A stretch of 64,000 nt of DNA from an uncultured Bacilli bacterium (GTDB taxonomy: Bacteria; Bacillota_I; Bacilli_A; RF39; UBA660), in contig CAJTUR010000001.1 of NCBI GenBank assembly GCA_910579535.1, positions 26,587-90,586 on the forward strand, in the 5' to 3' direction. The notes below the pieces were generated by a model. The model did not search any database and had not been told where the DNA came from. It was given only the letters and a program-made list of their open reading frames with translations. Within the stretch, counting starts at the first letter, position 1, and each line of letters begins with the position of its first letter. This document shows positions 7,610-56,127 of this stretch, piece by piece. Both the position numbers and the translations under genes were made by a program.

Positions 7610-7673
7610 TTCATATTTTTTTATAAAAATTCCTTCTTTCTTGATAGAAGCAAAAAAAACCACATATTGTGGC

Positions 7674-10092: not shown

Positions 10093-10211
10093 AAATGTGA
10101 ATAATTATTCACAAGTTATTCTTGTCTCCATGCTAGAATATAAAAGAAAAAAAAGGGTTATAAACATTATCAACAGTATAATAATAAAAAAATAAGAAAG
10201 AAGGAACCAAA
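10093..10211. promoter_or_regulatory. dnaA-dnaN intergenic DnaA boxes and AT-rich DNA-unwinding-element candidate
   Basis: TTATTCACA (inverted GTGAATAAT) and TTATCAACA near-consensus boxes followed by a run of over 30 A/T. Confidence 0.5.
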
Positions 10212-11330: not shown

Positions 11331-11425
11331 AAAATGAACTTTTTGTTCGTTTTTTTCTTTTTCGACATTTTTCTTTCTTTTTATTCGATAGGATAGGACG
11401 CAATTATTTATGAGGAGAGGATTAT

Positions 11426-11872: not shown

Positions 11873-11980
11873 GTATGAAAAAATCTTTTAAATAGGTTAA
11901 TAAGTATGGTATAATTTAGTTAGGTATAGGAGTACATATTACCTATTATTTTTATTATATGGGCATAAAAGAGGTAAAAT

Positions 11981-34870: not shown

Positions 34871-35640
34871 TTGAAGCAAAGAAAAAATTTGGTCAAAATT
34901 TTTTGAAAAATAAGGACATTTTACAAAAAATAAGTGATTCTATTGAAGTTTCTGAAAGCGATTTAATTATTGAAATTGGTCCTGGTATGGGTGCTTTAAC
35001 AAATTTTTTAGCTCAAAAAGGGTGTTCTTTATTGTGTTATGAAATAGACCAACGTATGAAAGATTATTTAAATTCCTATGTCTGTGATAAAGTTCAAATT
35101 CTTTATGGTGATTTTTTAAAGCGAAATGTTAAAGCGGATATTGAAAAAATTCCTTATAGACAAGTTTATGTTGTTTCTAATATTCCTTATTATATTACCA
35201 CGCCTATTTTACTTAAATTGATGGATTTAGATTGTTTCACTTCTATTGTTTTACTTGTTCAAAAAGAGTATGGTGAAAGAGTTGTAGCGAAAGAGAAAAG
35301 TAAAAACTATAATGCTTTAACTTTATTAGTAGATTATGGTTACAATAGTGAAATTATTATGGATGTAGACAAAAGAAATTTTACACCTGTTCCTAAGGTA
35401 GACAGTGTGGTTTTGAAATTAAATAAAAAAACACCTCTAGGTGTTGATAAAGAAAAATATATTTCTTTTATTAAAATGTGTTTTAAAAATAAAAGAAAAA
35501 CTTTAAAAAATAATTTGTCTTTGGAGGCATTTATTAAAATTAAGGAAAAACTAAGAAGTTTGGGTTATAGTGAAAATGTACGGGCTGAAGAAATCCGTCG
35601 GGAAGATTATAAGGAATTGTTTTTATTTTTGATAAAATGA
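34858..35640 (+). CDS. rsmA: 16S rRNA (adenine1518/1519-N6)-dimethyltransferase RsmA/KsgA
   Basis: FGQNFL start motif, SAM-binding EIGPGMGALT, catalytic NIPY. Confidence 0.9.
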   Translation: MAKMIEAKKKFGQNFLKNKDILQKISDSIEVSESDLIIEIGPGMGALTNFLAQKGCSLLCYEIDQRMKDYLNSYVCDKVQILYGDFLKRNVKADIEKIPYRQVYVVSNIPYYITTPILLKLMDLDCFTSIVLLVQKEYGERVVAKEKSKNYNALTLLVDYGYNSEIIMDVDKRNFTPVPKVDSVVLKLNKKTPLGVDKEKYISFIKMCFKNKRKTLKNNLSLEAFIKIKEKLRSLGYSENVRAEEIRREDYKELFLFLIK

Positions 35641-40974: not shown

Positions 40975-41011
40975 ATATGTCAAATTTGAACTAAAATAAT
41001 GCTTAAATTGG

Positions 41012-41040
41012 CTATTTTTGTTTGACTTTTAGTCAATTTT
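41012..41040 (+). promoter_or_regulatory. SigmaA-type promoter of rplM-rpsI (TTGACT, 17 nt, TATAAT) with a structured L13-leader-like 5' UTR downstream
   Basis: Consensus -35/-10 hexamers with 17-bp spacing; about 95-nt leader before rplM. Confidence 0.5.
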
Positions 41041-41135
41041 TCCCTATAATTTAGATTGGTACATTTTATTTGTTATGAAGCACCAAGCTGTGGGAAAGTT
41101 TAGTGTGATGAATAGCTTATGAAAGGAAAAGATTC

Positions 41136-41567
41136 ATGAAAACATTCATGCAAAGAAAAGAAGATATTGAACGTAAGTGGTATGTTATTGATGCTGAAGG
41201 AAAGAATTTAGGTCGAATTGCTACTAAAGCTGCAACTGTTTTAAGAGGTAAACATAAAGTTACTTATACACCACATGTTGATTGTGGAGATTATGTAATT
41301 GTTATTAATGCTTCTAAGGTTAATTTAACAGGAAATAAGTTAAACGATAAGATGTATTATAATCATAGTGGATACCCAGGAGGTCTTAGAGAAAGAAATG
41401 CTAAGACAATGATTGAGAGTTATCCAGAAGAAATGTTGGAAAGAGCAATTAAAGGAATGCTTCCTCATGGAAGACTTGGAAGAGCCATGGGTAAGAAGTT
41501 GTTTGTTTATAAAGATACTAATCATAAACATGAAGCTCAAAAACCAATAGAAATGAAAGTTGATTAG
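41136..41567 (+). CDS. rplM: 50S ribosomal protein L13
   Basis: [30 protein letters not shown] is near-identical in pattern to E. coli L13. Confidence 0.95.
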
Positions 41568-41576
41568 GAGGGTATT

Positions 41577-41999
41577 ATGGCTACAAAAAAACAATGTTGG
41601 TCTGCAACAGGACGTAGAAAACGTTCTAGTGCACAAGTAAGATTAACAAGTGGTACAGGAATTATTACTGTTAATGGCGTAGATGTTAATGAATATATGC
41701 CTTATCAAACACTTGTTATGGATTTAAAACAACCTTTAACTATGACAAACAATGAAAATAAATTTGATGTTGAAGTTACAGTTAAGGGCGGTGGCTTTTC
41801 AGGACAGACTGGAGCTATTCGTTTAGGTATTACTAGAGCTTTAGTCCTATTTGATGCTAATTCTGATCAATCAAGCGATGATTCTTATCGTAAAATCTTA
41901 AAAACAGCTGGATTTGTTACTAGAGATCCAAGAGTTAAAGAACGTAAAAAACCAGGTCTTAAAAAAGCACGTAGAGCACCACAATTTAGTAAACGTTAA
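41577..41999 (+). CDS. rpsI: 30S ribosomal protein S9
   Basis: [14 protein letters not shown] and C-terminal [12 protein letters not shown]. Confidence 0.95.
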
Positions 42000-42014
42000 T
42001 CTATTTTCTTTAAA

Positions 42015-42040
42015 CCTCATAATTTCTTTATGGGGTTTTT
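42015..42040 (+). terminator. Intrinsic terminator of rplM-rpsI
   Basis: CCTCATAA/TTATGGGG hairpin followed by T5. Confidence 0.6.
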
Positions 42041-42175
42041 ATTTGTAATAATCTTTAATAAATTTAAGAAATAAAAAATGATTAATTCTTAGAAATGGTT
42101 TTTTTTGAAGAATGTTTTAGATGAAGTGACCTAAATTTTATTTTTTCATAAAATATTTTGAGGAGGAAATCTAAA

Positions 42176-42220
42176 ATGGCAAAAAAAATTGTAATTGATC
42201 CAGGACATGGAGGATACTGA
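42176..42220 (+). pseudogene. 5' fragment (13 codons + stop) of a CwlC-like sporulation N-acetylmuramoyl-L-alanine amidase, cut by element insertion (attL side)
   Basis: RBS GAGGAGG then MAKKIVIDPGHGG-Y-stop. B. subtilis CwlC begins MVKIFIDPGHGGSDPGA. The reading frame resumes at 53408 with TDPGTIANGITEKD.. Confidence 0.6.
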
Positions 42221-42269
42221 AAAATCCAAAAATAAAAGAATGGCTATAAAGTAAGTAAATACAAGGAAA

Positions 42270-42300
42270 TTAAGGTACTTTGGTAGGAAAGTATCTTTTT
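42270..42300 (+). repeat. 31-bp direct repeat copy A (TTAAGGTACTTTGGTAGGAAAGTATCTTTTT), terminator-like hairpin
   Basis: Copy B at 42680-42710 differs by 1 nt; the two flank the tRNA. Confidence 0.8.
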
Positions 42301-42339
42301 TATAGAAAATAATAAAAAAATATTGTATAATACGAATAT

Positions 42340-42410
42340 GGGGATATAGTTTAATGGTAGAATAGTAATCTCCAAAATTAAAGATGTGGGTTCGATTCCC
42401 ATTATCTCCA
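42340..42410 (+). tRNA. tRNA-Trp (anticodon CCA) carried on the element
   Basis: Cloverleaf folds; GGGGATA/TATCTCC acceptor, GTTTAATGGTAGAAT D-arm, anticodon loop CTCCAAA, TGGGTTCGATTCCCA T-arm. Closely parallels B. subtilis tRNA-Trp (GTTTAACGGTAGAAC..CTCCAAA..TGGGTTCGATTCC); one G:A mismatch at the top of the anticodon stem; no encoded CCA end. Confidence 0.8.
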
Positions 42411-42679
42411 TTTTTATTAAACTAGCAATTCTCGATTCCTTGGTGTCTATAGCAACACTAGTTTTGCCTATGAGTATTTCCATTATAATTGTTATGATAA
42501 ATCTTATCATAAAGCTATTAGTTGAAAAGAAAGAGGGTACTATGATAACAATAAAAGGTGTAAACTGCAGTGTTTATGTAGGTAACCTATATGTTGGTTG
42601 TTATTGTAAAGGATAGAGTTTTGTATAGATTTGCAGTTGAGGTGTGAATCCTCTTACCTACACCATTTTTGGGTATTAA

Positions 42680-42710
42680 TTAAGGTACTTTGATAGGAAA
42701 GTATCTTTTT
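42680..42710 (+). repeat. 31-bp direct repeat copy B (TTAAGGTACTTTGATAGGAAAGTATCTTTTT)
   Basis: See copy A. Confidence 0.8.
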
Positions 42711-42744
42711 TGATGGTATAATATTTAATGATTTGGTGAAAAAT

Positions 42745-43746
42745 ATGTATTTAGATGAAGATAAAATAAAAGATTATAATTTTTTGATGTTATGTAATAA
42801 CTATATCGTTAGTATTTTGGAACGAGCTGATTTAAAAAAATGGTCTGAAGAGAAGATAGATTTCAAAGATAAGGATAAAAAGAAACTTGATTCAAATAAG
42901 TATGATATTTTCTATTTTAGAAATCATGGATATGCTACAGTAATAAATAAAAGTCTATATAAGCATATAATTTTTTCATTAATTTCTGATTATAATATCT
43001 ATGTTAAAGATGCAATTGATTGTTGTTTAAAAGGTCATTTTAGTGTAGCATATACTCTTTTAAGGAAACCATTTAAGGATGATTTGTTTATGATAGAATT
43101 ATTTTATGTTTCTGGCTATAGAATAATTTCTAAGTTTGCAAATAGTTCTATAGAAAATTTTAGAATTGAGAGTTATTCTGAAAATGAAAAGAAAAAAGTA
43201 TTAAGAAAGGTTTGTAAAAAGATAAATTTTTTTACTGCTAAAAAATTATACGACTTACGATATTCATCTAACTCATATGAAGGGTTAGAAAAATTTTGGA
43301 ATAAAGCTATACACATAGTAACGAGTAGAAAAAATTATAAAACTGAAGATGCTAATTTCAATATGATATTTTATGATGATAATGTTGTAGCTGAGCAGAT
43401 TACCTATATCTACAAAGTATTATGTTCTATTCAATTATATTTTATTGTTCTCATCTCAAACATTTTGTTAGAAGAACAATTAATAACTGAAAATGAGTAT
43501 AATTTTAATATTAACAATTTGTTTTATGCTTTTTGCATTACTTTAGACAATTATAATTTAACATCTGAACAAAAAGATTCTTTAATATATGTATGCAAAT
43601 ATTGTGGTTGCCAAAATATATTTAATCATGAACAATTTATGAATAATTATAATAAAGGAATTTTTAAGAGAAAATGCGGTAAGTGCAATAAGACTTATGA
43701 AATAAGAAAATTTGATTTCTATGATTTTAAGGATAAAGTTAATTGA
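42745..43746 (+). CDS. Hypothetical protein with a C-terminal Cys4 zinc-ribbon (CKYCGC..CGKC)
   Basis: ATG 42745 with a GGTGA RBS (the track starts at TTG 42733); no family recognised. Confidence 0.5.
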   Translation: MYLDEDKIKDYNFLMLCNNYIVSILERADLKKWSEEKIDFKDKDKKKLDSNKYDIFYFRNHGYATVINKSLYKHIIFSLISDYNIYVKDAIDCCLKGHFSVAYTLLRKPFKDDLFMIELFYVSGYRIISKFANSSIENFRIESYSENEKKKVLRKVCKKINFFTAKKLYDLRYSSNSYEGLEKFWNKAIHIVTSRKNYKTEDANFNMIFYDDNVVAEQITYIYKVLCSIQLYFIVLISNILLEEQLITENEYNFNINNLFYAFCITLDNYNLTSEQKDSLIYVCKYCGCQNIFNHEQFMNNYNKGIFKRKCGKCNKTYEIRKFDFYDFKDKVN

Positions 43747-43756
43747 AAACTATTAG

Positions 43757-43786
43757 GAGATACTTGAAGAAAGTATCTTTTATTAT
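43757..43786 (+). terminator. Hairpin AGATACTTgaagaAAGTATCT + T4 (terminator and possible oriT-type inverted repeat upstream of the relaxase gene)
   Basis: Perfect 8-bp stem; shares the AAAGTATCTTTT arm with the 31-bp repeats. Confidence 0.5.
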
Positions 43787-43816
43787 GCAAATTTAAGAAA
43801 GCGAGGAATGATATGT

Positions 43817-45097
43817 ATGAATTATGGAATATTTAGAAGTCAACCAATAATGACTATAAATGATTTAGCACAAATAGGATCACACAATAAACGAGATAAA
43901 AAAGCCTATAAAAGTAATCCAAATATTAAATTAGAATTAACTAAAAATAATATAGAATTAGTACCCTTATCAGAAAAGTATGTTAAGGGTTTTAAATTGC
44001 TTGTAAAAGATTATGAAAAAGAACACAATGAACGAATGAAAACTGAACGACCTGAAAGAAAAAAGACCTTTAATGAAATGTTAAATAAATCTAAAAGTGT
44101 TGTAGCTGATGAACTCATGTTTACTGCAACCCATAAATTCTTTGATAATATGAGTAATGATGAAATAATGAGATGGGCTGATACTTGTATGGATTTTGTT
44201 TACAACGATTTAGGTTATAAGAAAGAACAGATATTACACGCAACAATACACATGGATGAACTAACACCTCATATTCATTGTGTAGTTGTACCACTTGTTA
44301 AAAAGTTAGATAAAAGAACAAATATTGAAAGATTAACTATTTCTAAAAAGCAATATATTAGAGATAATATTCATTTATCAGAATTACAAGATATTTATAA
44401 TTTAAGATTAAGAGAAAATGGTTTCGAACTAGAACGAGGTATTAAGGGTAGTAATAGAAAACATGAAAAAGTAAAAGAGTTTAAGAAAACAACTAGATAT
44501 TATGAAGATAAGGTAACCACTATCAATAAAAGTCTTGATAATGCTATGAATGAATTTGAAGAAAAAATGAAAACTACTAAAAATACTTTAATAGATAAAG
44601 AATATGTAAAAGTACGAAAAGATACTTTTGATAGTATGAAAAATGTAATAAAAGAAACTAAAAAGATTATGGAATTTCAACCCAAAATGGAGCAATTATT
44701 TAATGAGGTAAATACTTTTAGCAAAAGTCATCAAACATTAGAAAAAGAAAATGCAAATTTACAACGAGAAGTAAAAGCACTTACTACTAGAAATCAAAAC
44801 TTAACGAAAGAGAATAACCATCTTAAAGACTATTTAAAAGCCATTTTGGAGGCAATAAAGCACTTTTTTAGGGAATTACTACAAATTGGTAATGAACCTA
44901 CAAAAGAAGTCACTACAACTGAAATAAAAGACTATTTTGATAACAACGACTTTGATATGAATGATGTTGTTGAAATATCAAGAGGAACTACCAAAGAAGA
45001 TGAATTATTTGATTATGTAAAAGCACCTAGTTATTTAAAAACTAATAAAAAAGCTTATAACAATAAAGACAAGGAGGATTATGAGTTATCTTTATAG
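43817..45097 (+). CDS. MobV-family relaxase (Mob/Pre plasmid recombination enzyme)
   Basis: N-terminal MNYGIFRSQPI..HNKRD (compare MobM MSYMVARMQKM..HNER) and the metal-binding HATIHMDELTPHIHCVVVP (MobM SVHLDESTPHMHMGVVP); long coiled-coil C-half. Confidence 0.8.
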   Translation: MNYGIFRSQPIMTINDLAQIGSHNKRDKKAYKSNPNIKLELTKNNIELVPLSEKYVKGFKLLVKDYEKEHNERMKTERPERKKTFNEMLNKSKSVVADELMFTATHKFFDNMSNDEIMRWADTCMDFVYNDLGYKKEQILHATIHMDELTPHIHCVVVPLVKKLDKRTNIERLTISKKQYIRDNIHLSELQDIYNLRLRENGFELERGIKGSNRKHEKVKEFKKTTRYYEDKVTTINKSLDNAMNEFEEKMKTTKNTLIDKEYVKVRKDTFDSMKNVIKETKKIMEFQPKMEQLFNEVNTFSKSHQTLEKENANLQREVKALTTRNQNLTKENNHLKDYLKAILEAIKHFFRELLQIGNEPTKEVTTTEIKDYFDNNDFDMNDVVEISRGTTKEDELFDYVKAPSYLKTNKKAYNNKDKEDYELSL

Positions 45098-45398
45098 CAA
45101 AACTTACAAAATCCGAAATTTGACAAGATAGTGTAAATGTGATAAAATTTAGTTGATTTTTGAAAAGGAGAGATTGTTATGTTAAAAATTAATAATATAG
45201 TTAGACAACATCATCATAATAATCTGCACTTGTTAATACGACATTAAAATTTGATCGTAGGCACAAGTGCTATTTGTGGTGCTTGTTGCCTGTATTAAAT
45301 ATAGAAATGAACTATACAGGTAAATAAAATCTGTATAGTTTTTATTTTAGGTAATTAGCATCACTTAAAAAATATTATATGAAAGAGAGATGCTAATT

Positions 45399-46874
45399 AT
45401 GGAAAGAAATATTATGATAGCTGGAAGCTATCCAACGATTATCACTAGTGGAGGAAATCCAAGAGTGAATAAAGATTTAATTGATAATATATTTTTAAGA
45501 AAATATGTATCTTTATTAGGAGAGTTATTAAAAGTAAAAGGAAATTTAAGTGATATTAAAATTGCATATATTGGTGGATATTCAAAAGAAGATAACATTA
45601 GTAGAGCAAAGCTATATATTAGTGCATATAACTATTATTTAAATTGTTTAGGATATGAATCATTAAGCAAAACCAATTTAACAGTAATTGATACTGATAA
45701 CATTGATGAGGTATCAGAAAATATTGAACAATGTGATTTATTATTTTTAGGAATTGGTGCTGATAGTAAATTTGCTAGTATTCTTTATGCATTAGAATCA
45801 AAAGGAATTAAATTTAATGAATTAATAAATAATAAAAATATACTAATTTCTTCAATTTGCTCAGGGAGTGTAATGTCAGCAGAAAGAATATATGGAGGAA
45901 AGTATGACAATTATTACTATGGGAAAGATCCATACGAATATCCTTTAAATATTAGGTCACTAAGTATTAATCCTATTACCATGGAAACCGATTTTTGTCC
46001 TAATGATGCTACACTACAAAAAAATGAAATATTTGTTGAAAACTATTTGAAACCAGATAGTAATAAATGTGTATTCTTTGCTTGCAAGCCTAATAGTTTG
46101 TTTTTAATAGGTGAAGATAAAATATATTCATATGGAGAAATGTATTTGTTTGTTGATGGTGAATGTTTACAAATTGAAAATGAACTTGAGAAAGCAGATG
46201 TAACTGAGTTAGTTGCATTGGTTAATGAGTATAATAAAGTAAAGAATAAAAGTAATATACTTAATAATGAGATGTTAACAGTCATTAAAAGTAAAGTTCA
46301 ATCATTAGTAAAAATGAAAATTGAAGTTGAACTAAAATCAGAGAAAGAAAATATTGTTAATGAATTTGTTCAAAAAGAAGTTGTAAAGGATGAACAAAAT
46401 AAAATGCGAGTAAATGAGTGGAAGCAAGCTTTAAAATCAAAATTAAATTATCTATTTAGTGAAGAAAATCTTGGAAATTTTGCAACAGACTTAGAATTAC
46501 AAGAAAGATATAAAAGATTAAATGAAAATATTGTAGAAAGCTATAATGTTGGTAGATCTAAAGATTATTTAGAAGAGTTATATTTGAAAATGAATTTAGT
46601 TAGTTTAATTAAGGTGTCTTATATTGATTATCAAGGTTACTATTCAGATTTTAAAGGTGATTTATACGATTTGCTTTGTGAATATATCTCAGTTAATAAT
46701 AGACTTGTCTATTATTCGATAGATACATGTGGTTGTTTATTTTCTAACAGAGAATTAAAGAAAATATTAAATGTTATAAAAATCGAAAATATAAAAAGAC
46801 CACAACAATTTATAAATTCTACTGAACAACAATTAAAACTTTTTAGAAGGGAGATTAAATATGAAAGAAGTTAG
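45399..46874 (+). CDS. Two-domain protein: N-terminal class I glutamine-amidotransferase-like / peptidase S51-like domain, C-terminal unknown
   Basis: Nucleophile-elbow-like SSICSGSV after a beta-strand DLLFLGIGAD; first gene of a three-gene operon overlapping the next gene by 14 nt; the track start 45390 has no RBS spacing, ATG 45399 preferred. Confidence 0.5.
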   Translation: MERNIMIAGSYPTIITSGGNPRVNKDLIDNIFLRKYVSLLGELLKVKGNLSDIKIAYIGGYSKEDNISRAKLYISAYNYYLNCLGYESLSKTNLTVIDTDNIDEVSENIEQCDLLFLGIGADSKFASILYALESKGIKFNELINNKNILISSICSGSVMSAERIYGGKYDNYYYGKDPYEYPLNIRSLSINPITMETDFCPNDATLQKNEIFVENYLKPDSNKCVFFACKPNSLFLIGEDKIYSYGEMYLFVDGECLQIENELEKADVTELVALVNEYNKVKNKSNILNNEMLTVIKSKVQSLVKMKIEVELKSEKENIVNEFVQKEVVKDEQNKMRVNEWKQALKSKLNYLFSEENLGNFATDLELQERYKRLNENIVESYNVGRSKDYLEELYLKMNLVSLIKVSYIDYQGYYSDFKGDLYDLLCEYISVNNRLVYYSIDTCGCLFSNRELKKILNVIKIENIKRPQQFINSTEQQLKLFRREIKYERS

Positions 46875-47823
46875 ATTAATAGCTCCATCAATGAGTTTAT
46901 CCGAAAACGATAAAGCCAAAATATTAAATGCTGAAAAATATTTCAAAAGTTTAGGATATTCATTAACAGTAGGAAAATACATTTTTGATAAAGATACTTA
47001 TTTTGGATGCTCTAGTATAAAAAATAGAGTTGAAGATTTAATGAATGCATTTTTAGATAAAAATGTGGAAATAATCGTGTGTGCAGATGGAGGCTATAAT
47101 GTAAATCAAATACTTCCATATCTGGATTATAAGATTATCAAACAGAATCCTAAAATAATTATTGGCTATTCTGATATTACAGCATTATTAATTGCAATTA
47201 TGAAGAAAACAAATTTAACTACATACTATGGACCGATGTTAAGTGGTTTTAGTTCTGATAATGAATATACTCTACAATATTTTGAGAAAATATTAAAAAA
47301 TAAGGATTTTATGATTCATTCATCAAAGGTAATATATGACTATAAAAAAGTAAATAATAAAATGGAAAAAGCTACTTTAAAAAATGATGGTATGATACCA
47401 ATCCAAAATGGTGAATCTTTTGGAAAAATTATTGGTGGTAATTTATGCACTATCAACTTATTGCAAGGCACAGAATATATGCCCAATTTAAATGATAGTA
47501 TATTGTTTCTTGAAGATGATGCTGATGATTTTGGAAATGATGTATTTTTATTAGAATTTGATAGAAACTTAGAATCATTATTACAATTACCTAATTGCAA
47601 AATAAAAGGAATTGTTTTTGGCAGATTCCAGTTATGTAGTAATATGACTATTGATAAGTTAAAAACTATCATTAAAAATAAGAAAAAGTTAAAAGATGTT
47701 CCGATTGTATGTGGAGCTGATTTTGGACATACAAATCCAATGTTTACAATTCCAATAGGTGCATATTGTAACTTGCAGATAAAGAATAATGATATAGAAA
47801 TAAAAATAGAAATGGGGAAATGA
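46861..47823 (+). CDS. Peptidase S66 LD-carboxypeptidase / MccF-like (microcin C7 self-immunity peptidase family)
   Basis: IAPSMSL N-terminus, GYSDITALL (nucleophilic Ser in GxSD), later GHT motif (ADFGHTNP), the S66 Ser-His-Glu architecture. Confidence 0.75.
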   Translation: MKEVRLIAPSMSLSENDKAKILNAEKYFKSLGYSLTVGKYIFDKDTYFGCSSIKNRVEDLMNAFLDKNVEIIVCADGGYNVNQILPYLDYKIIKQNPKIIIGYSDITALLIAIMKKTNLTTYYGPMLSGFSSDNEYTLQYFEKILKNKDFMIHSSKVIYDYKKVNNKMEKATLKNDGMIPIQNGESFGKIIGGNLCTINLLQGTEYMPNLNDSILFLEDDADDFGNDVFLLEFDRNLESLLQLPNCKIKGIVFGRFQLCSNMTIDKLKTIIKNKKKLKDVPIVCGADFGHTNPMFTIPIGAYCNLQIKNNDIEIKIEMGK

Positions 47824-47824
47824 T

Positions 47825-49114
47825 ATGAAAATTCAAAATGTAAAAGGTGGCTATGATTTTTTACCTAAAGAACAAAGAATCAGAAATTATATAAATGATA
47901 CATTAAGAAAAATTTTTGAAGAGTATGGATATAATCCAATTGAAACTCCACTACTATGTTACTATGACATTTTAAGTGATAAGTATGATGAGGATAATGA
48001 TATATTAAATGAGATTTATAAATTAAGTGATCAAGGGGAAAGACAATTAGGATTAAGATACGATCTAACTGTACCTTTTGCAAAATTTATTGCATTAAAT
48101 AAAAATAAAATAAATATACCATTTAAACGCTATGAAATAGCAAAGGCTTTTAGAGATGGACCTATTAAGGTTGGAAGGGATAGAGAATTTACGCAATGTG
48201 ATGTTGATGTTGTTGGTTTATCTGGGCAAATGATAGAAGCTGAATTGATGACCTTATTTACTAGAGCATTTAAAGAATTAGGCATTGATATTATTATCAA
48301 ATATAATAGTAGAAATTTGATGAATGGTTTGATTCTAGAATGTGGTGTTGATGAAAATTTAGTTTCGCTAGTTACTACCAATATTGATAAGTTGGAAAAA
48401 ATAAGTAAAGATGAATTTAAAAATAATTTACTTAATATTGGATTAAAAACACAACAAATCGACTTACTTTTAGAGTATTTTAGCTTATCCTTATGTGAAT
48501 TAAATAATAAGTTTGAAACTACCAAAAATGAAAAAATTATTTTGGGATTAGATGAATTAAATCAATTAACAAGTTATTTAGAAGCACTAAATATTAATGA
48601 TTTATGCATATTTGCATCATCATTAGCAAGAGGACAAAATTATTATACAGGTAATGTATTTGAAGTATATGAAAAAAATGGAAAAATAACTTGTAGTATA
48701 GGTGCAGGTGGAAGATATGATAAAATGATTACTAATTTTATTGGTGATGGTAATGAATATCCAACAGTAGGAATAAGTTTTGGCTTATCATCAATTTATG
48801 AATTACTAAAAGATAAAGAAATGTTTGAAAATGAATCTAATGTAGACATTTATATAATTCCGATGGAAACAAATCTTGAAAGTTTAAAATTAGCAAATAA
48901 TTTAAGAGATTTAGGGTACAAAGTTGAAATACAAATGCAGAATAAAAAATTAAAGAAAAGTCTAGACTATGCTAATAGAGAAAATATTCCTTATGTAATT
49001 ATATTAGGAGAAGATGAATTATCTAAAGGAGAGATTGTTATTAAAAGTATGTTGAATAATAATGATATTGAGTTATCATTAAATGATTTAGAAAAAATAA
49101 AACAATTTATTTAA
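47825..49114 (+). CDS. hisS: Histidyl-tRNA synthetase, element-borne second copy (full length with anticodon-binding domain)
   Basis: KGGYDFLP N-terminus, class II motif 2 RYEIAKAFRDGPIKVGRDREFTQCDVDVVG, motif 3 GAGGRYDKM, C-terminal class II anticodon-binding domain; 429 aa. Confidence 0.85.
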   Translation: MKIQNVKGGYDFLPKEQRIRNYINDTLRKIFEEYGYNPIETPLLCYYDILSDKYDEDNDILNEIYKLSDQGERQLGLRYDLTVPFAKFIALNKNKINIPFKRYEIAKAFRDGPIKVGRDREFTQCDVDVVGLSGQMIEAELMTLFTRAFKELGIDIIIKYNSRNLMNGLILECGVDENLVSLVTTNIDKLEKISKDEFKNNLLNIGLKTQQIDLLLEYFSLSLCELNNKFETTKNEKIILGLDELNQLTSYLEALNINDLCIFASSLARGQNYYTGNVFEVYEKNGKITCSIGAGGRYDKMITNFIGDGNEYPTVGISFGLSSIYELLKDKEMFENESNVDIYIIPMETNLESLKLANNLRDLGYKVEIQMQNKKLKKSLDYANRENIPYVIILGEDELSKGEIVIKSMLNNNDIELSLNDLEKIKQFI

Positions 49115-49123
49115 TACTATGGA

Positions 49124-49171
49124 AAGCCGAAATCCAAAAGAAACTTCGTAACTAATGGATTTCGGTTTTAA
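49124..49171 (+). terminator. Terminator of the HisRS operon
   Basis: AAGCCGAAATCC/GGATTTCGGTTT stem followed by T4. Confidence 0.5.
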
Positions 49172-49434
49172 CTAACTTTTAGACAAGTTAGTAACACACT
49201 ACGATATTGGCAAGCCAATAACGATGTGTGCCAAGGGAATTTTCCCTTTGGAAACCCTAGAAGCAACTTATATTGCAAAGTTTCACAATGTAATATAGTT
49301 GCCTTTTTATTTCACTATCGCTACATAAAAAGAAAAAGATTATCGCTGCGTTCATTTGCTAAAGCAAACAAAACGCACCCCACCTTTTTATAAAAAAAAT
49401 AGTCTAATCGCTAATCTTACGAAAAGCGAAAAGA

Positions 49435-49881
49435 CTATTTTTTCTTATTGTATGTTTTCTCTAATAATCTTGCAGTATCTCTTTTGGCTACATATATAGC
49501 TAAGTAAGTTATAAGTTCATAAGTAATCATTACTACAAAGAAGATTATGATTACTATTGAATTATTTGTTAATCCCTTTTTTACATAATCTATAAATTGT
49601 ATTGTTAGATATATTATTCCAAAAACTACTGTTGATATAGTTGTTGAATCATCAAAAGATCGTTGTATCACTCTCGATTCTTCTTTATCAGCATTTAACC
49701 CTCTTACACTCCATCTACCTATTACCATTAACACCAATACCATTAGAAATGGAGTAATAACCCAATACAAATTATAGCCATAATCATTTTTCTGAAATAA
49801 AACTAATACTAAGCTTACTACCATAAAAATATTTAATAATATGATTCCAATATTTCTTATTATAATTTTACTTTTTTGCAT
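49435..49881 (-). CDS. Hypothetical 4-TM membrane protein co-transcribed with the XRE regulator
   Basis: Hydrophobic segments; overlaps the XRE gene by 14 nt. Confidence 0.5.
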   Translation of the reverse strand: MQKSKIIIRNIGIILLNIFMVVSLVLVLFQKNDYGYNLYWVITPFLMVLVLMVIGRWSVRGLNADKEESRVIQRSFDDSTTISTVVFGIIYLTIQFIDYVKKGLTNNSIVIIIFFVVMITYELITYLAIYVAKRDTARLLEKTYNKKK

Positions 49882-50371
49882 TTTTGTTTCTCTCCTTTAC
49901 TTTTAAACTTTGAATCAAAATAATAATTTCTTTAGAAGTATTGATTTGATATTCAGTATCTTCTATTGTATGTAGCAGTAATTCTCTTTCGCTTTCCAAT
50001 ATGTTTTTATTTTCTAAATTTTCTCTACAAGCATTAACAAGCTTTGTTGAATTTTCAATACTACCTAAAACATTGATTTCAGCCTCATTTAATTCATCTA
50101 ACTTCATTTTTTCATAATAAGCTTTGATAAATGGATTTAAAGAACTAACTTCCATGCCTAAACCTATTTTATACATCATCTCGTTATAATTAACATTTAT
50201 AAACTTACTTATCTTTCTTAATGTTTTAGGATTAGGTACTTCTCTTTCTCCTGATTCAATTTTAGATAATTCAGCATTACTAATGTTTGCTTCTTTAGCA
50301 AGTTGTCTTTGTGAGTAACCTGCTTTTTCTCGTGCTTCAGCGATTATTTCGCCGATTTTTTTTTCTTGCAT
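49868..50371 (-). CDS. XRE-family HTH transcriptional regulator (CI/ImmR-like), start at ATG 50371
   Basis: HTH GYSQRQLAKEANISNAELSKIESGER; RBS GAGGTG 7 nt upstream of 50371. Confidence 0.75.
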   Translation of the reverse strand: MQEKKIGEIIAEAREKAGYSQRQLAKEANISNAELSKIESGEREVPNPKTLRKISKFINVNYNEMMYKIGLGMEVSSLNPFIKAYYEKMKLDELNEAEINVLGSIENSTKLVNACRENLENKNILESERELLLHTIEDTEYQINTSKEIIILIQSLKVKERNKNAKK

Positions 50372-50386
50372 TGTAATACACCTCAC

Positions 50387-50549
50387 AAATACATAATAGC
50401 ATATATGTTAACTAAAATCAACAAAATAAATAAAATTGTTTCTAAAAGTGTTGACAATATAGTAATTATCATGTAGTATAGTATGTGTTTCCAAACATTA
50501 ACATTAAATCAAAAATGTTAACAAGTAAGAGAAAGGAGGAAAACTATGA
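50387..50549. promoter_or_regulatory. Divergent promoter/operator region with repeated ATGTTAAC half-sites
   Basis: TTGACA, 17 nt, TAGTAT promoter toward 50550; ATGTTAAC / GTTAATG / ATGTTAAC motifs at about 50405, 50498 and 50516. Confidence 0.4.
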
Positions 50550-50813
50550 ATGAATAAAAGACATCAAGGAATTCCAACAAAGATTTTAAAAGATAAGAGA
50601 ATCAAGCCTGAGGGGAAGTTAATATATTCTTATATATATTCTAAAGGGCAAGATAGGATTATCACAGATCTAAATGTTGGAGAATTACAACAAGTAGTGA
50701 AGATAAATAATCAAGGACTTAGAAAAAACCTTGAAAGATTGGAACAATCAAAGTATCTAATCTATAAAGAATATGATGTAGGAATGTACACAATAAATCT
50801 ACTAGGTTGTTAA
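50550..50813 (+). CDS. Small winged-helix DNA-binding protein (paralogous to 51027 and 57731 proteins)
   Basis: Shared pattern K(x)L..(x)KL(I/L)YSY..S..(I/T)..(L)..L..S...(I)...L..L...(Y)(L/I) with the other two. Confidence 0.5.
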   Translation: MNKRHQGIPTKILKDKRIKPEGKLIYSYIYSKGQDRIITDLNVGELQQVVKINNQGLRKNLERLEQSKYLIYKEYDVGMYTINLLGC

Positions 50814-51026
50814 ATAACTCCTAGTAGATATGGTACAGTAAGATATAAGGCTTATGTTAGTACCTTTTCTATAAAGATAGAATAAACTTCATTTAATCCG
50901 AGAGACAGGATTTAAAATAAAGTCTTAGGGATAACTTTGCCTATTTTATAGGTAAAAGAAAAGCCTATTATTATCATTTTAAATTTAAGGAGAATAATTA
51001 TTTTAAAGTTAGATTGTGAATTTATC

Positions 51027-51482
51027 ATGACTCCACGAATATTATTTAGAGATAAGAAATTATCAAGAACTGAAAATGATGTTTTAAGTCTTATCATATC
51101 ACTTGCCTTAAATAAAGAGTATTGTTATGCTACGAATGATTATCTAAAAGAGTATATAAATTCATCTGATAGAACGATAAATTATTCATTGTCTAAATTA
51201 AAGAAACTTTGCTATATTATAGTAAAACATGAAAGTAGCAAAAGAAGAATATATCTTAATACAGAAAAGATACCAACAAAAGTTGCAGATGAGGGTGCAG
51301 AAAATTGCAGTAATGAGAGTGCAAACAGTTGCACCCATAATATAAATAATAATAAATATAAAAAGAATAAAAGAAATGAAATTATTCCTGAATGGATGAA
51401 ACATCCAGAAATGTGTGTTTCTATTCCATTAAGTGAAGAAGAACAAAAAGAAATGGATGAACTAATGAAAGATTATAAATGA
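51027..51482 (+). CDS. Winged-helix (HTH_36 / replisome-organiser-like) DNA-binding protein
   Basis: N-terminal wHTH region similar to 57731-58024; acidic C-terminus. Confidence 0.5.
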   Translation: MTPRILFRDKKLSRTENDVLSLIISLALNKEYCYATNDYLKEYINSSDRTINYSLSKLKKLCYIIVKHESSKRRIYLNTEKIPTKVADEGAENCSNESANSCTHNINNNKYKKNKRNEIIPEWMKHPEMCVSIPLSEEEQKEMDELMKDYK

Positions 51483-51752
51483 GAGGAGAGATGTGTATGA
51501 TTGGAGGATTTAGTTTATAGAATATGAAAAAAGGGGGAAGTAAGAAAATGGAGGTAGTATATAATGTAAAATATAAATTTAAGACAAATGAAAATCGAAC
51601 TAAGGATGAAATAAAAAGTATATTTAATAACAAATTATTAAATGTCATAATGATTTTAGAAAATCATGAGTTAGCATTTAAAGAATCCTAAATATGAGAT
51701 ATAATATACTTGTATTTACAAATATTTATAGCTGTTCTCATACGTTGGAGGA

Positions 51753-53360
51753 ATGGCTATGATAGAAAAGGTAGGTGTATATTGTAGATTATCTGATGAA
51801 GATAGAGATAAGTTAAATAAAAATGATGATAGTGATAGTATAGTAAATCAAAGAAGTATGTGTTTAAAATATGCTAATCAAAATGGATGGAATGTTGTAG
51901 ATATTTATTCAGATGATGACTTTTCAGGAGCAGGAACTTATAGACCTGACTTTGAAAGGCTTATCAAAGATTGCGAAAGTGGAAAAATAAATTTAGTTTT
52001 ATGTAAAAGTCAATCAAGATTTTCAAGAGATATGGAAGTTATTGAAAGATATTTGCACAATAAGTTTATTGAGTGGGGAGTAAGATTTGTAAGTATTGTT
52101 GATAATGCTGATACAAGTATTGAATCTAACAAGAAATCAAGACAAATAAATGGACTTATCAATGAATGGTATTTAGATGATTTATCAACAAATATTAAAA
52201 AGTCTTTAAAGAATAAACGAGAAGATGGCTTATTTATGGGAAGTTTTGCTCCTTATGGTTATGATAGAAGTGAAGAAGATAAACACAAATTAGTTGTTGA
52301 TCCTGTGGCTGCTGAAGTTGTTAAAAAGATATTTCAAATGTATGCAGAGGGAAATGGCTATCATAAAATATGTGAATATCTAAATAACAATAATATTCCA
52401 CCAAGATCGGTATATAAGAAACAAAAAGGTAGTAAGTTTGTATGTTCTAATTGTGATTATAAAAATGTAAGATGGAATCCTGATACAATAGCTCAAATGC
52501 TTAGAAATGAATTTTATATTGGTAATCTAGTACAAGGTAAAATAACTTCTATGGGGTATAAAGTTCATAAGTTTAAGAAAGTTGCAGAAAAAGATTGGTG
52601 CAGAATAGAAAATTCACACGAGCCAATTATTGATATGGAAACTTGGAACAAAGTACAAAAGATACTTGGTACACATTTAAGTCCTACTAAAACTGGAGAG
52701 ATACACTATTTAAGTAGAAAAGTTTATTGTATGGAATGCGATAAGGTTTTTATGAGAAATGTGTATAGTGTAAAAGGAGAAAAGACAGGAAAAAGAGCAT
52801 ATTTACAATGCAAAGGTGCTAAAAAATATCACACTTGCGATAATAACAAAGCAATTAGAATGGATGAATTAGAAACTATACTACTTAATGCAATTAATGA
52901 TTTACTAGATAATTACTACGATCAAAATAATTTACAAGAACTCTATAACAAAAGAAATCAACAAGACACAAGTAATTGTGAAATAATAAAAGTTTTAGAA
53001 AAAGAAAAGTATAACCTCAATAAAAAGATAGATGATAATAAAACCTTTTATAGAAATCTTTATGAAGATAAGGTAAAAGGAACTATTACAGAAGATATGT
53101 TTAGTATAATGTCTAGCGATTATTTAAGAGAGATAGAATCGATGACAAAAAGAGTTGAAACGATTGATAACGAGATAAATAACCTACAAGTTGTTAAAGA
53201 AGAACGAAAACAAGCTGATGAAATACTAAAGAAATATAAGCATATTAAAGAATTAAATAAAGTAATAGTTGATGAATTTATTGATAAGGTTTATGTTGGT
53301 GTTTATGATAAAGAAACGAAAACACGAGATATTGAAATAGAATGGAACTTAGAATTTTAA
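51753..53360 (+). CDS. Large serine recombinase (integrase/excisionase for the element)
   Basis: N-terminal resolvase catalytic domain VGVYCRLSDEDRD..SRFSRD, recombinase domain, zinc-ribbon CSNCDYK..CMECD, C-terminal coiled coil; 535 aa; adjacent to the right junction. Confidence 0.9.
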   Translation: MAMIEKVGVYCRLSDEDRDKLNKNDDSDSIVNQRSMCLKYANQNGWNVVDIYSDDDFSGAGTYRPDFERLIKDCESGKINLVLCKSQSRFSRDMEVIERYLHNKFIEWGVRFVSIVDNADTSIESNKKSRQINGLINEWYLDDLSTNIKKSLKNKREDGLFMGSFAPYGYDRSEEDKHKLVVDPVAAEVVKKIFQMYAEGNGYHKICEYLNNNNIPPRSVYKKQKGSKFVCSNCDYKNVRWNPDTIAQMLRNEFYIGNLVQGKITSMGYKVHKFKKVAEKDWCRIENSHEPIIDMETWNKVQKILGTHLSPTKTGEIHYLSRKVYCMECDKVFMRNVYSVKGEKTGKRAYLQCKGAKKYHTCDNNKAIRMDELETILLNAINDLLDNYYDQNNLQELYNKRNQQDTSNCEIIKVLEKEKYNLNKKIDDNKTFYRNLYEDKVKGTITEDMFSIMSSDYLREIESMTKRVETIDNEINNLQVVKEERKQADEILKKYKHIKELNKVIVDEFIDKVYVGVYDKETKTRDIEIEWNLEF

Positions 53361-53407
53361 GATAAAAGATGATAATTTGGACTTTTCCGATTCCTGCACA
53401 TGGAGGA

Positions 53408-53668
53408 ACTGATCCTGGAACTATTGCGAATGGAATAACAGAGAAAGATTATACTTTAAAAATAAGTCAATATATGCATGAAAGGTTAAATGATTTGGGT
53501 ATTGAAAATCGTATGACTCGTACAAATGATGAAACCTTGTCTCCAAGTGTGAGACCAGATAGAGCACAAAGTTTTTTTGGAAAGGGTAATGATGTGATTT
53601 TAGTATCTAATCACATAAATGCAGGAGGTGGCGACACATATTTTGTGATTAAAAGTAATTGTGTATAA
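53408..53668 (+). pseudogene. 3' continuation (attR side) of the CwlC-like amidase, itself truncated after about 99 aa of the catalytic domain
   Basis: TDPGTIANGITEKDYTLKIS..MTRTNDE..VILVSNHINAGGGDTYF matches the Amidase_3 catalytic domain (CwlC SDPGATGNGLQEKTLTLQIA..FLSIHVNSGGGTGFESY); stops at 53668 with the C-terminal half missing. ORF-track 53369 start MIIWTFPIPAHGG is element-derived read-through. Confidence 0.6.
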
Positions 53669-54183
53669 TTGTTCATAAGCTTCCTGAAATTATACAACTA
53701 TAGACAAAAGTAAATTAAAAAGGTAGATTTTAGAGTTGAAAAATACAATAATACTATAAAAACTAAATATCTTAACAAATAAATACGATGTTCATGTAAA
53801 AGTATAGGATTTTTTATGATTATGATCATAAAGATTATAATCATAAGTTAAAAGATAAAATTTATATTAATTTGTCACGAAAAATGCTATTTGAGTGTAC
53901 ATACCAAAGCAATCGATGTTAATATGATTCAATCGGGGTCAGAGGGAAATTATTTTACACTGTTTGACTATAATTGAAATAAAAAATATTTGTGTAGCAT
54001 TATATACAACATGCGCAGAATGTGGTATATTAAAGCAAATCGTGTCGTTTGGTATTGCTGACAAGATATCATACACCAATCTAGAGTAGCTTTTTACTCA
54101 TAGCAGATAGATGTTTTTCGATAATATAGTATTTTTAGTGTGAAAGTTAAGACACAGATTATAATGGAGAGGAGATTTTAAAA

Positions 54184-56127
54184 TTGAAGAATAATATTTT
54201 TGAAAATATGGAATTCCTCGGGTCACTTTCAAAAAAGTTTGATGGACAAGAACAGATTATGGAATCTCTCCATTTAGCAGCGAAGCAACTAGAACTTTCC
54301 GGTATTGCAAAATATGCTAATTTAGCTACTGCCATGTCATCTAAGCAGATTGGAGCTATTGGTTCTGCCTATCTTAGCGGTGCATTTCAATTTGAAAAAA
54401 AATTAGCTCAAAAATTACATGATATTTATGCCCCGCTAGAAAAGGCGTTTGACAATATTGCCACAGTTGAAAATCTGTTAGGCATGCACTTTAAAGAACT
54501 TGTGCAACCATCATTTTATTTGCCAGATATAAGTGGAATCCTTGCTACAGTGAATAGTTGTTCATCGGCATTATCAAGGTCGGCATCAGTACTAGATACA
54601 TCTTGGGTGCAACAAGTGAATCCATGGCTAACGGATGTTTCGCGTTTTAATACTATGGATACTAGTGCACTTATAGGCATGAATACAGAATTTTCAAAGC
54701 TTATTAAATTAGAACAAGAAACATCTGGTCTTGCATTAATTGCTGAGAGTTTTTCAAAAATTACGAGTGCGTCAGCTCAATTGGCTTCTATAGAAAATTT
54801 GCTTTCTGGTCTTGCAGAACAATGGCGTGATGTAATTGTTCCGCTCCGATTTTTAGATGATTATGGTAACTTTGCGTTACGACAATATACTTTGATTCAA
54901 AAAGCAGCCAGTGAAAATGATGATAAGTCAGTTGAATGGCGTTTAGATTTGTTAGATGCCACTTCCAAATTTGTTGATAGACAAATTACATGGGCAAGTG
55001 ACTTTTCAGTGGACATTCAAGAGGATATTGATTCCAAGAATTTACCTGTTATTGAAAATGAATTAGATATTGCATTAATTCCTCAGTACATTGGATATTC
55101 TAAACGTGATGCTAAGGTAGTTGAGAAAGCTCTTGTAGAATCAGATATTTCAATCATTACAGAAAAAGGTAAGTTAATTGTCAACAAGGCTCGACTAATT
55201 AAAAAAATTTGCAAAGTAAATAATAGAGAATTGCTTTTTGAAAATACAGATTTTTATGTTGGAAGTTATATAACACTCGCAGGGACTTTCTGCAGGAATA
55301 CAGATTCTCTTAAAAGTGTAGTAGATGCTTTATATCATTTGTTATTTTCTCAAAAAGAAGTACTTTCTGTATTTATAGATTTAGATGATTTTGAATGCAT
55401 AGAACTAATCAGTAATCTGAAAGATAAGGAACTATATCCAGAGCAATCTAAGGAAATATCAGATTTACAAAATAGAGTGTATGATTACTTTCTCAACTTG
55501 GAAGATGCTATTATTGAAAAAATTGAAATTGATTCATCGTTTGGTCAGTCAACAGTTTCAGCTACTACAATGTTGTCCGAAGATAACTGGACTGAAGAAA
55601 CAGTGAGTAAAAATATCTTAAAAGCATTACTCAAGGTACAAGGTAACAAAACTTTTTATGGAAAAAAAGAGGATGAATTAAACGATTGCATTAGAGATAC
55701 TCTTAGCATGGTCTATGAGATGAAAGATCAATCCAGACAAGGAGTCTCTCCTAGTGGAAAAGATGCTGGTGAAGTGGATTTACAAATATGTAGAGATGGA
55801 TTTCCTATTGCTATAATAGAAGGTTTAAAAGTTAATTCTTTAGATCGGAACTACATACAGAACCATATTGACAAAGTTCTTACATGTTATGACCCCTTTG
55901 GTTGTCCATATAGTTATGTAGTAATTTATGTAACAGTTAAGAAGTTTGAAGATTTTTGGGTAAACTGTCTAAACTATATACGAGATGAATATAGTTTTCC
56001 CTATACAATAAAAAAAGAAATCCAAGAACTAAATCATATGTATTCATCTTCGAGACATGCTAAAATAGTGTTATTACGTGATGGCAGAGAAGTATCAGTT
56101 CATTTTTATGCATTATCAGTACAGTAA
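54184..56127 (+). CDS. Hypothetical 647-aa protein, GC-richer than the genome, C-terminal PD-(D/E)xK-like nuclease motif
   Basis: TTG start with GGAGAGGAG RBS; Ala/Ser/Leu-rich helical N-region; GEVDLQICRDGFPIAIIEGLKV resembles a D...ExK nuclease core; first gene of the second island. Confidence 0.5.
   Translation: MKNNIFENMEFLGSLSKKFDGQEQIMESLHLAAKQLELSGIAKYANLATAMSSKQIGAIGSAYLSGAFQFEKKLAQKLHDIYAPLEKAFDNIATVENLLGMHFKELVQPSFYLPDISGILATVNSCSSALSRSASVLDTSWVQQVNPWLTDVSRFNTMDTSALIGMNTEFSKLIKLEQETSGLALIAESFSKITSASAQLASIENLLSGLAEQWRDVIVPLRFLDDYGNFALRQYTLIQKAASENDDKSVEWRLDLLDATSKFVDRQITWASDFSVDIQEDIDSKNLPVIENELDIALIPQYIGYSKRDAKVVEKALVESDISIITEKGKLIVNKARLIKKICKVNNRELLFENTDFYVGSYITLAGTFCRNTDSLKSVVDALYHLLFSQKEVLSVFIDLDDFECIELISNLKDKELYPEQSKEISDLQNRVYDYFLNLEDAIIEKIEIDSSFGQSTVSATTMLSEDNWTEETVSKNILKALLKVQGNKTFYGKKEDELNDCIRDTLSMVYEMKDQSRQGVSPSGKDAGEVDLQICRDGFPIAIIEGLKVNSLDRNYIQNHIDKVLTCYDPFGCPYSYVVIYVTVKKFEDFWVNCLNYIRDEYSFPYTIKKEIQELNHMYSSSRHAKIVLLRDGREVSVHFYALSVQ

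Follow-up and report, generated by a model that had tools for sequence, protein, structure and literature searches.

The question raised by this locus is what three genes of one operon, coding for an S51-derived protein (called g1 here), an S66 serine peptidase and a histidyl-tRNA synthetase (HisRS), do together on a mobile element. The operon lies in a stretch of 64,000 nucleotides (nt) from an uncultured Bacilli bacterium (contig CAJTUR010000001.1 of GCA_910579535.1); this whole stretch is called the window, and positions are counted from its first letter. The initial annotation had read the operon as a candidate immunity module against an antibiotic that targets HisRS. We consider it reasonably likely that the operon, the cargo of an 11.2-kb mobilisable element, instead responds to histidine shortage by adding HisRS and freeing histidine from a small conjugate. 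That it answers a shortage of charged tRNA-His is argued from its regulatory context, from the conserved avoidance of histidine in its products, and from the company that its leader keeps elsewhere (hisS, hisG and M20 peptidase genes).

Organisation of the operon and its leader

All three open reading frames (ORFs) are present where the initial annotation had placed them, and its gene identities and operon structure hold; what it had overlooked is a leader with an attenuator upstream. The parts of the operon are listed below in the order of transcription.

45120-45148, plus strand: operon promoter (TTGACA, 17 nt, TG-extended TAAAAT), the best sigma-70 match in 44900-49600, with 11/12 positions
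45179-45247, plus strand: leader peptide ORF MLKINNIVRQHHHNNLHLLIRH*, 22 codons, with the ribosome-binding site GGAGAG upstream
45226-45348, plus strand: attenuator RNA, regions 1-3 followed by a terminator hairpin and a T-run
45399-46874, plus strand: g1, histidine-free, 491 amino acids (aa; 494 aa from 45390), with an N-terminal S51-fold domain and a C-terminal helical domain
46861-47823, plus strand: S66 serine peptidase of the MccF-like branch, triad Ser104/Glu218/His290, its start overlapping g1 by 14 nt
47825-49114, plus strand: class II histidyl-tRNA synthetase, histidine-free, of the PRK12420 ('hisS paralog') type (Pfam, NCBIfam)
49123-49169, plus strand: probable operon-distal terminator AAAGCCGAAATCCA..TGGATTTCGGTTTT, an inverted repeat with 14-nt arms, 93% complementary, followed by TTTT

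The overlap of 14 nt by which g1 runs into the S66 gene, described earlier, was borne out and is kept at five other loci (L013, L015, L023, L028 and L137; L numbers are our labels for compared loci). Two details needed correction: the gap between the S66 and HisRS genes is 1 nt, not 2, and the g1 start at 45390 is replaced by the likely start at 45399, in view of the ribosome-binding-site spacing and of a 491-aa form on record in the protein collection. The promoter-distal terminator that had been proposed is recognisable as the hairpin at 49123-49169, which a simple terminator scan did not call because its loop is 19 nt long.

The 290 nt that separate the relaxase gene of the element from g1 hold the promoter, the leader ORF and a series of complementary segments ending in a terminator. 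The extended -10 stands at the same place in nine homologous leaders. Five of the leader codons specify histidine, three of them in a row (45209-45217, 45227-45229 and 45242-45244). Region 1 of the attenuator, GCACTTGT (45226-45233), lies within the leader ORF, region 2 is ACAAGTGC (45263-45270), region 3 is GGTGCTTGT..CCTGTAT (45278-45295), and the terminator contributes its 5' arm as fourth partner. This terminator is an intrinsic hairpin (45309-45341) with a T-run that lies 5' of g1 and was picked up by the terminator scan. Folding of the leader RNA gave z-scores of -5.6, and partial folds show alternative structures. In an alignment of 76 non-redundant leaders, the share paired is 97.5% for 1:2 and 93.8% for the 3:4 anti-terminator, which falls to 22-50% in slid registers. 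For the terminator it is 92.8%, with 2 compensatory pairs, a result reached by 0 of 500 shuffles; in an alignment of 8 sequences the closing pair of the terminator alternates between AU and GC at 4:4. An Rfam search of 41000-54500 at E<=1 returned tRNA only, with no T-box, His_leader or other known family, and no further histidine leader was found elsewhere in the window.

Conserved avoidance of histidine

The products encoded downstream of this leader are almost devoid of the amino acid that its codons specify. Histidine counts are 0/494 for g1, 0/429 for HisRS and 2/320 for the S66 protein (the catalytic His290 and one other), giving 2 histidines in 1243 residues for the operon against a background of 1.59% in window ORFs of at least 200 aa. 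A Poisson test of this total (p ~6e-7) was dropped as the main argument, two unrelated window proteins being histidine-free as well. Conserved avoidance across homologs is stronger evidence than the count in a single genome. The 120 best HisRS homologs (67-100% identical) contain 0 or 1 histidine each, 50 g1 clusters (38-94% identical) contain 0-3 and mostly 0, and His290 is the only histidine conserved in six g1-linked S66 orthologs. The purge of histidine from g1, which includes the catalytic residue, is hard to explain without selection for expression in histidine shortage.

The leader in other genomes and metagenomes

All g1 loci examined (the window, L009, L010, L013, L015, L018, L023, L025, L028, L030, L135 and L137) lie behind a leader with the consensus ..HHHxxLHLLIRH that is followed by the same RNA, and a homologous leader also precedes stand-alone HisRS genes of the same type in L019, L020 and L029. 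A scan of metagenome contigs with the motif of regions 2 and 3 returned 104 stretches, nearly all with a leader of histidine codons, and the leader ORF is conserved in more than 90 leaders. Downstream of these leaders stand HisRS alone (23 loci), a PRTase-like>SLOG>HisRS arrangement (10 complete loci), or the architectures GNAT-like>M20 peptidase(>HisRS), M20>HisRS, HisG>HisRS and DapF-like>HisRS. Histidine is scarce in most of these products (HisRS 0.03%, HisG 0%, SLOG 0%, PRTase-like 0.05% and GNAT-like 0.14%); it makes up 0.96% of the M20 peptidases, a family with metal-binding histidine residues, and 1.48% of unclassified neighbouring genes.

In four loci (L113, L057, L065 and L071) the same scaffold carries Cys codons (HC/HCC; ..QHCINN..) in place of HHH and precedes a cysteinyl-tRNA synthetase gene (CysRS; tRNA-synt_1e 6e-38) or a radical-SAM-like gene. 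Since this natural codon swap accompanies CysRS, the codons at the HHH position are taken to be the sensor, and the scaffold appears to form a modular family of leaders that has been put to use for a second amino acid.

Several further arrangements were seen. In L043, L108 and L112 (also L070 and L117) the leader is followed by a short-form, histidine-free HisG (195-200 aa) and immediately afterwards by a HisRS of the element's type. A short HisG normally needs the HisRS paralog HisZ, and the HisRS behind it might double as HisZ. At least 10 loci (L041, L045, L052, L056, L083, L084, L104, L114 and others) place a histidine-free pair between leader and hisS, consisting of a PRTase-like protein (206-240 aa, weak PRTase-CE match) and a SLOG cluster 4 protein (182 aa, 4.8e-29). 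L013 has two tandem histidine-rich leader ORFs, MSKKQLNNMVHHCNEHLYHRH (7618-7683) and MLKINLLNRHHHSLYLLIRH (7828-7890), before its g1-S66 pair, and there the usual terminator segment is absent from the alignment.

A model for the response to histidine shortage

In the model that we propose, transcription would start at 45120-45148 and first meet the 22-codon leader. With charged tRNA-His plentiful, the ribosome would reach the leader stop and mask region 1, regions 2 and 3 would pair, the terminator would form and transcription would stop ahead of g1. With charged tRNA-His scarce, the ribosome would stall on CAU-CAU-CAU, region 1 would take region 2, and the freed region 3 would pair with the 5' arm of the terminator, allowing RNA polymerase to read through. 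We infer this direction of the switch from folding predictions and from the likeness to his and trp attenuators. All three products could be made in such a shortage, because g1 and HisRS are histidine-free and the S66 protein has two histidines. On the most economical view of their function, the extra HisRS would raise charging capacity under histidine scarcity, and the coupled g1 (an S51-derived Cys hydrolase) and S66 protein (a carboxypeptidase-type serine hydrolase) would probably release histidine from a small peptide-like conjugate.

Several observations weigh against this account. In the 76 leaders no double-sided covariation was found for the 1:2 and 3:4 pairings, and regions 1-3 are almost invariant. 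The full-length leader RNA thermodynamically favours the terminator even with 1:2 formed; because its minimum-energy fold retains the terminator, the switch must depend on co-transcriptional kinetics. Zero histidine is also found in the window's KsgA/RsmA (260 aa, 34858-35640, plus strand) and in a putative lipoprotein (333 aa, 6300-7301, minus strand), so a zero count in one protein is weak evidence, and an ordinary Paraclostridium hisS product has just 1 histidine. As for the enzymes, g1 lacks the canonical catalytic histidine and might not be a hydrolase, and what points to histidine salvage is regulon membership and enzyme class. S51 enzymes show aspartyl specificity, the substrates of MccF are aspartyl or glutamyl adenylates, and neither family is known to have a link to histidine.

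g1 is a derivative of the S51 family

The initial annotation had described g1 as a protein with a Cys-nucleophile, peptidase-like N-domain and a C-domain of 260 aa. The N-terminal domain has the S51 fold with a Cys at the nucleophile elbow and no catalytic histidine; the C-terminal domain is helical, about 220 aa long, and has no recognisable relatives. Searches with g1, whole or in two halves, against Pfam (including the S51 model) and NCBIfam at E<=10 gave no match. A profile of the g1 family run against 1.84 billion representatives retrieved only about eight full-length clusters (50% identity); the next matches were proteins of 240-255 aa (6e-11 to 1e-3), and 7 of the 8 that were scanned are Pfam S51 members. 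In a joint alignment of g1 and S51 proteins, the nucleophile Ser of S51 is an invariant Cys in g1 (sICSGS vs GvSAGS), the catalytic His of IIPHF is replaced by Asp, Ser or Asn after an invariant Glu199, and a PDS motif is common to both. These residues identify g1 as an S51 derivative that has lost even the catalytic histidine. Against sequences in the Protein Data Bank (PDB) the profile returned coiled-coil noise only, and tblastn of g1 found nothing among the PLSDB plasmids.

Among the g1 genes looked up, the most distant (38-39% identical; L009-L012 and L018) stand alone behind a histidine leader, directly after a gene for a 303-aa fusion of a LeuRS editing domain (5e-16) and a NUDIX domain (4e-11). 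This neighbourhood, together with the unexplained helical C-terminal domain and the ability of MccF-type enzymes to cut aminoacyl-adenylate mimics, could indicate that g1, with or without the S66 protein, acts on the translation apparatus during stalling at histidine codons, on mis-acylated or peptidyl tRNA-His or on an aminoacyl-adenylate by-product rather than on nutrients. However, the LeuRS-editing/NUDIX neighbourhood occurs in one lineage only, Pfam scans detected no RNA-binding domain, and the only activity known for S51 and S66 enzymes is that of small-molecule peptidases, so that a role of this kind appears very improbable.

The S66 peptidase belongs to the MccF-like branch

The S66 protein has the two-domain architecture of its family (Pfam Peptidase_S66 4.6e-36, Peptidase_S66C 7.3e-25). 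The hallmarks for which it had been singled out are genuine, with Ser104 (GYSD), Glu218 (LEDD) and His290 (GHT) aligning with the corresponding residues of Lmo1638, BA_5613 and Bacillus anthracis MccF. Its closest PDB matches are Lmo1638 and BA_5613 (1e-70), both deposited as 'MccF-like', followed by MccF of B. anthracis and Escherichia coli (1e-39 and 1e-35), whereas LdcA structures match at 1e-13 to 1e-20, which agrees with the earlier placement nearer to MccF than to LdcA. Crystal structures of Lmo1638 and BA_5613 exist, but literature searches yielded no described function for them and no relevant report on MccF together with HisRS or on operons that combine S51 and S66.

One residue of the MccF catalytic loop is missing. 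In E. coli MccF, W186 stacks on the adenine of processed microcin C (PMC8323819), and its equivalent in B. anthracis, W180, is the W of FINWEEK (present in wild-type 3gjz, Ala in 3sr3). This Trp aligns with Val164 of the S66 protein, which contains no Trp whatever; the Val164 loop varies among S66 orthologs and is deleted in the L015 ortholog.

An alternative to the histidine-shortage response is that g1 and the S66 protein serve general or cell-wall peptide recycling, as an LdcA/YkfA-like enzyme and a dipeptidase, in a captured chromosomal operon whose link to histidine is regulatory only. The S66 family includes LD-carboxypeptidases, S51 enzymes are dipeptidases, and the three-gene operon also occurs in chromosomal contexts outside the element (L023, L025 and L028). 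In addition, the sole NCBIfam match of the S66 protein is muramoyltetrapeptide carboxypeptidase (LdcA); however, its score of 125 bits lies far below the cut-off of 378, and LdcA structures are its most distant S66 matches. A purely regulatory link also sits poorly with a g1 that is under a histidine leader at every locus examined, even when alone (L009, L010, L018 and L135), and that has been purged of histidine, catalytic residue included. We regard peptide recycling as improbable.

A probable extra copy of HisRS without signs of drug insensitivity

The third product is a complete class II HisRS, as described initially, with a catalytic core and an anticodon-binding domain (Pfam tRNA-synt_His 1.6e-36, HGTP_anticodon 1e-12; TIGR00442 347.5 bits, cut-off 286.75). 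Among NCBIfam families it scores best with PRK12420, where its 495 bits fall just short of the cut-off of 540. A HisZ-like regulatory paralog was considered and rejected, given that the protein has an anticodon-binding domain and passes TIGR00442.

The element's HisRS is very probably an extra copy, in line with the initial annotation, because the element is recent and strain-variable, occurs at two sites with 99.8-100% identity, and has a decayed counterpart of this gene in L030. In L030 the operon hisS is a pseudogene (frameshift, 189-nt deletion and 3' truncation), while g1 and the S66 gene are intact at 95% nucleotide identity. This decayed operon copy (10002-10430 and 11306-14401) has a relaxase-gene remnant upstream and a type 2 IleRS gene (tRNA-synt_1 + DUF5915) downstream. 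A HisRS search of genome contigs found 5 close loci, never two in one genome.

Accessory aminoacyl-tRNA synthetases (aaRS) that replace a drug target include ileS2/mupA (mupirocin), a second TrpRS (indolmycin) and a second SerRS (albomycin), and such copies are clearly divergent, drug-insensitive variants. The suggestion that the present HisRS is a divergent, inhibitor-insensitive target did not survive comparison of its 12 closest homologs (84-100% identical, and operon-linked wherever the context was looked up) with 108 others (67-76% identical; the three looked up are stand-alone). The single consistent difference is N204 vs E, outside motifs 1-3, and 152 near-invariant columns, motif 2 and motif 3 residues included, are common to 119 homologs; nothing marks drug insensitivity.

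PRK12420-type plasmid copies in Planococcus and Lysinibacillus are nearly histidine-free and have an HHH leader. Another plasmid copy, in Bacillus cereus (L145; NZ_CP085499.1, 95512-106792), encodes a PRK12420-type HisRS with 1 histidine in a co-directional cluster with genes for sulfopyruvate-decarboxylase-like subunits, DUF6002, a DMT transporter and a ParB-N protein. Possibly the cluster is biosynthetic and its HisRS confers self-resistance, which bears on the existence of natural HisRS inhibitors.

These observations allow the immunity proposal of the initial annotation to be weighed. Its components hold: the S66 protein is MccF-like with an intact triad, S66 and HisRS genes are paired in at least four contexts, the HisRS is very probably accessory, and the operon is element-borne; the specific immunity role has gained no positive support. 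Stated in full, the operon would be an inducible defence against a natural HisRS inhibitor, for example an aminoacyl-nucleotide, in which the toxin lowers charged tRNA-His, leader stalling serves as the drug sensor, histidine-poor proteins are still made, the S66 protein (perhaps with g1) destroys the toxin or its carrier peptide, and the extra HisRS titrates the rest. The proximity of the S66 protein to MccF and MccF-like structures rather than to LdcA would fit such a defence, as would an accessory HisRS carried by the type of mobilisable element on which resistance genes are usually found, and an attenuator with histidine-free products is what an inducible system against a HisRS inhibitor needs. 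In addition, both S51 enzymes and MccF cut aspartyl-type amide bonds, as in microcin C-like compounds (PMC8323819), and the PRK12420-type HisRS in the putative B. cereus plasmid cluster hints at HisRS-directed natural products.

However, the HisRS differs from its 108 relatives by one fixed residue and gives no sign of a drug-insensitive target, and where MccF has its adenine-stacking Trp, the S66 protein has Val164, within a loop that is absent from one ortholog. Elsewhere, g1-S66 pairs (L013, L015 and L137) and g1 alone are chromosomal and have no HisRS, and the same leader controls hisG and M20 peptidase genes, which are nutritional functions. No mccB-like, producer or export genes lie near the operon, and in a review on Trojan-horse aaRS inhibitors the terms HisRS and histidyl occur 0 times. 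From these sequence comparisons, immunity to a HisRS inhibitor is weakened but not refuted, because such an inhibitor would trip the same switch, and we judge it unlikely. If true, no earlier resistance island would be known against a Trojan-horse compound directed at HisRS, and the operon would be the first.

The mobilisable element and its insertion site

The operon had been described as element-borne, and the same 11.2-kb block with defined ends does recur in a second genomic context at 99.8% identity. The features of the element besides the operon are the following.

42205-53406, plus strand: integrative mobilisable element, ~11.2 kb, its ends marked by the direct repeat ACATGGAGG at 42205-42213 and 53398-53406
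42339-42411, plus strand: tRNA-Trp (CCA) inside the element (ARAGORN; Rfam tRNA 66.6 bits), within the block common to L002
43808-45097, plus strand: MobV/Mob_Pre relaxase (Pfam Mob_Pre 4.4e-29; NCBIfam MobV 111.5 bits, cut-off 100)
51753-53360, plus strand: large serine recombinase (Pfam Resolvase 1.8e-24, Recombinase 4.7e-27, Zn_ribbon_recom 4.8e-9)

The relaxase, the recombinase and the defined ends together identify this block as an integrative mobilisable element. It is inserted in a cwlD-like Amidase_3 gene that lies downstream of rplM-rpsI, at the codons for GHGG. The block 42203-53470 recurs in L002-L004 with entirely different flanks, and a base-by-base reading of the junctions in each context (window 42176-42213 and 53369-53668; L002 4340-4400 and 15545-16339) showed an Amidase_3 gene broken exactly at the GHGG codons both times; the element copies at the two insertion sites are 99.8-100% identical. 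The original start of the amidase is left behind at the left end (MAKKIVIDPGHGG at 42176 in the window, MSLKVIIDSGHGG in L002), and a new amidase N-terminus, MIIWTFPIPAHGG at 53369, comes from the element, directly 3' of the large serine recombinase gene. L139, from the same species (99.93% identical over 8 kb), diverges at the identical base (junction read at 8020-8100) and has a different insert there, which marks the insertion site as a hot spot and the element as strain-variable.

The window is identical to contig CASMAX010000002.1 of GCA_949399815.1, and protein relatives carry the labels 'Bacilli bacterium', Erysipelotrichaceae and Tenericutes metagenome-assembled genomes, one contig being from a mouse-gut metagenome. 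The tRNA-Trp gene sits 130 nt from the left end of the element, perhaps as cargo or as part of the attachment region. The element also codes for a 337-aa protein (42733-43746) with C-terminal CxxC pairs and no family match and, on the opposite strand at 49435-49881, for a histidine-free membrane protein of 148 aa that overlaps an XRE-type regulator. The amidase ORF of the window ends after 99 aa, just beyond NHINAGGG, and is followed by an island with Fic, MazE and type I restriction-modification genes, which suggests a second, nested insertion.

Significance and comparison with known systems

On the histidine-shortage reading, the locus would represent a complete design for amino-acid starvation, in which a sensor of charged tRNA-His controls effectors that are purged of histidine and still translatable, packaged as a starvation kit on an element that is mobile between gut Bacilli. 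Histidine limitation would also provide a physiological context for two unstudied groups, the rare g1 family and the Lmo1638/BA_5613 branch of S66, and the locus offers a clean test case of whether accessory aaRS carried by mobile elements have a role in nutrition or in drug resistance. Already known were the attenuation by leader peptides of his genes and hisS paralogs in Firmicutes, S66 enzymes resembling MccF, and mobilisable elements with a serine recombinase. New are the g1 family with its Cys variant of the S51 active site lacking histidine, the obligatory association of g1 with a histidine leader and its frequent coupling to S66, the regulon-wide purge of histidine, and the packaging of such a unit on an amidase-targeting element.

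Each component has a known counterpart. The recombinase at one end, the MobV/Mob_Pre relaxase, the small size, the cargo operon and the short terminal direct repeats give the element, compared by gene content only, a layout like that of the Tn4451/Tn4453-type mobilisable transposons, which have the large serine recombinase TnpX and the Mob/Pre relaxase TnpZ. Unlike these, it targets the GHGG motif of Amidase_3 and replaces the N-terminus, carries tRNA-Trp, and has cargo that includes no classical resistance gene. The S66 protein shares its fold and Ser-His-Glu triad with MccF of E. coli and the B. anthracis homolog, but it is nearest to Lmo1638 and BA_5613, lacks the adenine-stacking Trp and mcc-like linkage, and is depleted of histidine. 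Relative to Peptidase E and cyanophycinase (MEROPS S51), g1 has Cys in place of the nucleophile Ser, Asp, Ser or Asn in place of the catalytic His, and an extra helical domain of ~220 aa, and the Pfam S51 model misses it. As with the ileS2/mupA, TrpRS and SerRS resistance copies, a second aaRS is carried on a mobile element here, but at conserved positions this HisRS is nearly indistinguishable from relatives at 67-76% identity, and it decays in one genome.

The closest likeness is in regulation, where the classical case is the E. coli hisL attenuator. In Firmicutes, attenuation by a leader peptide was described in 2022 for his genes and a hisS paralog (PMC9413887). Like these systems, with the published Erysipelotrichales attenuators likened by described layout rather than by sequence alignment, the present leader combines a short ORF with tandem histidine codons, predicted alternative hairpins and an intrinsic terminator before hisS-type or his genes, and its HisRS is of the same PRK12420 paralog type as in the Firmicutes system. 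Unlike them, it drives a g1-S66 peptidase pair unreported in any histidine regulon, is carried on a mobile element, and has a scaffold with four successive competing pairings.

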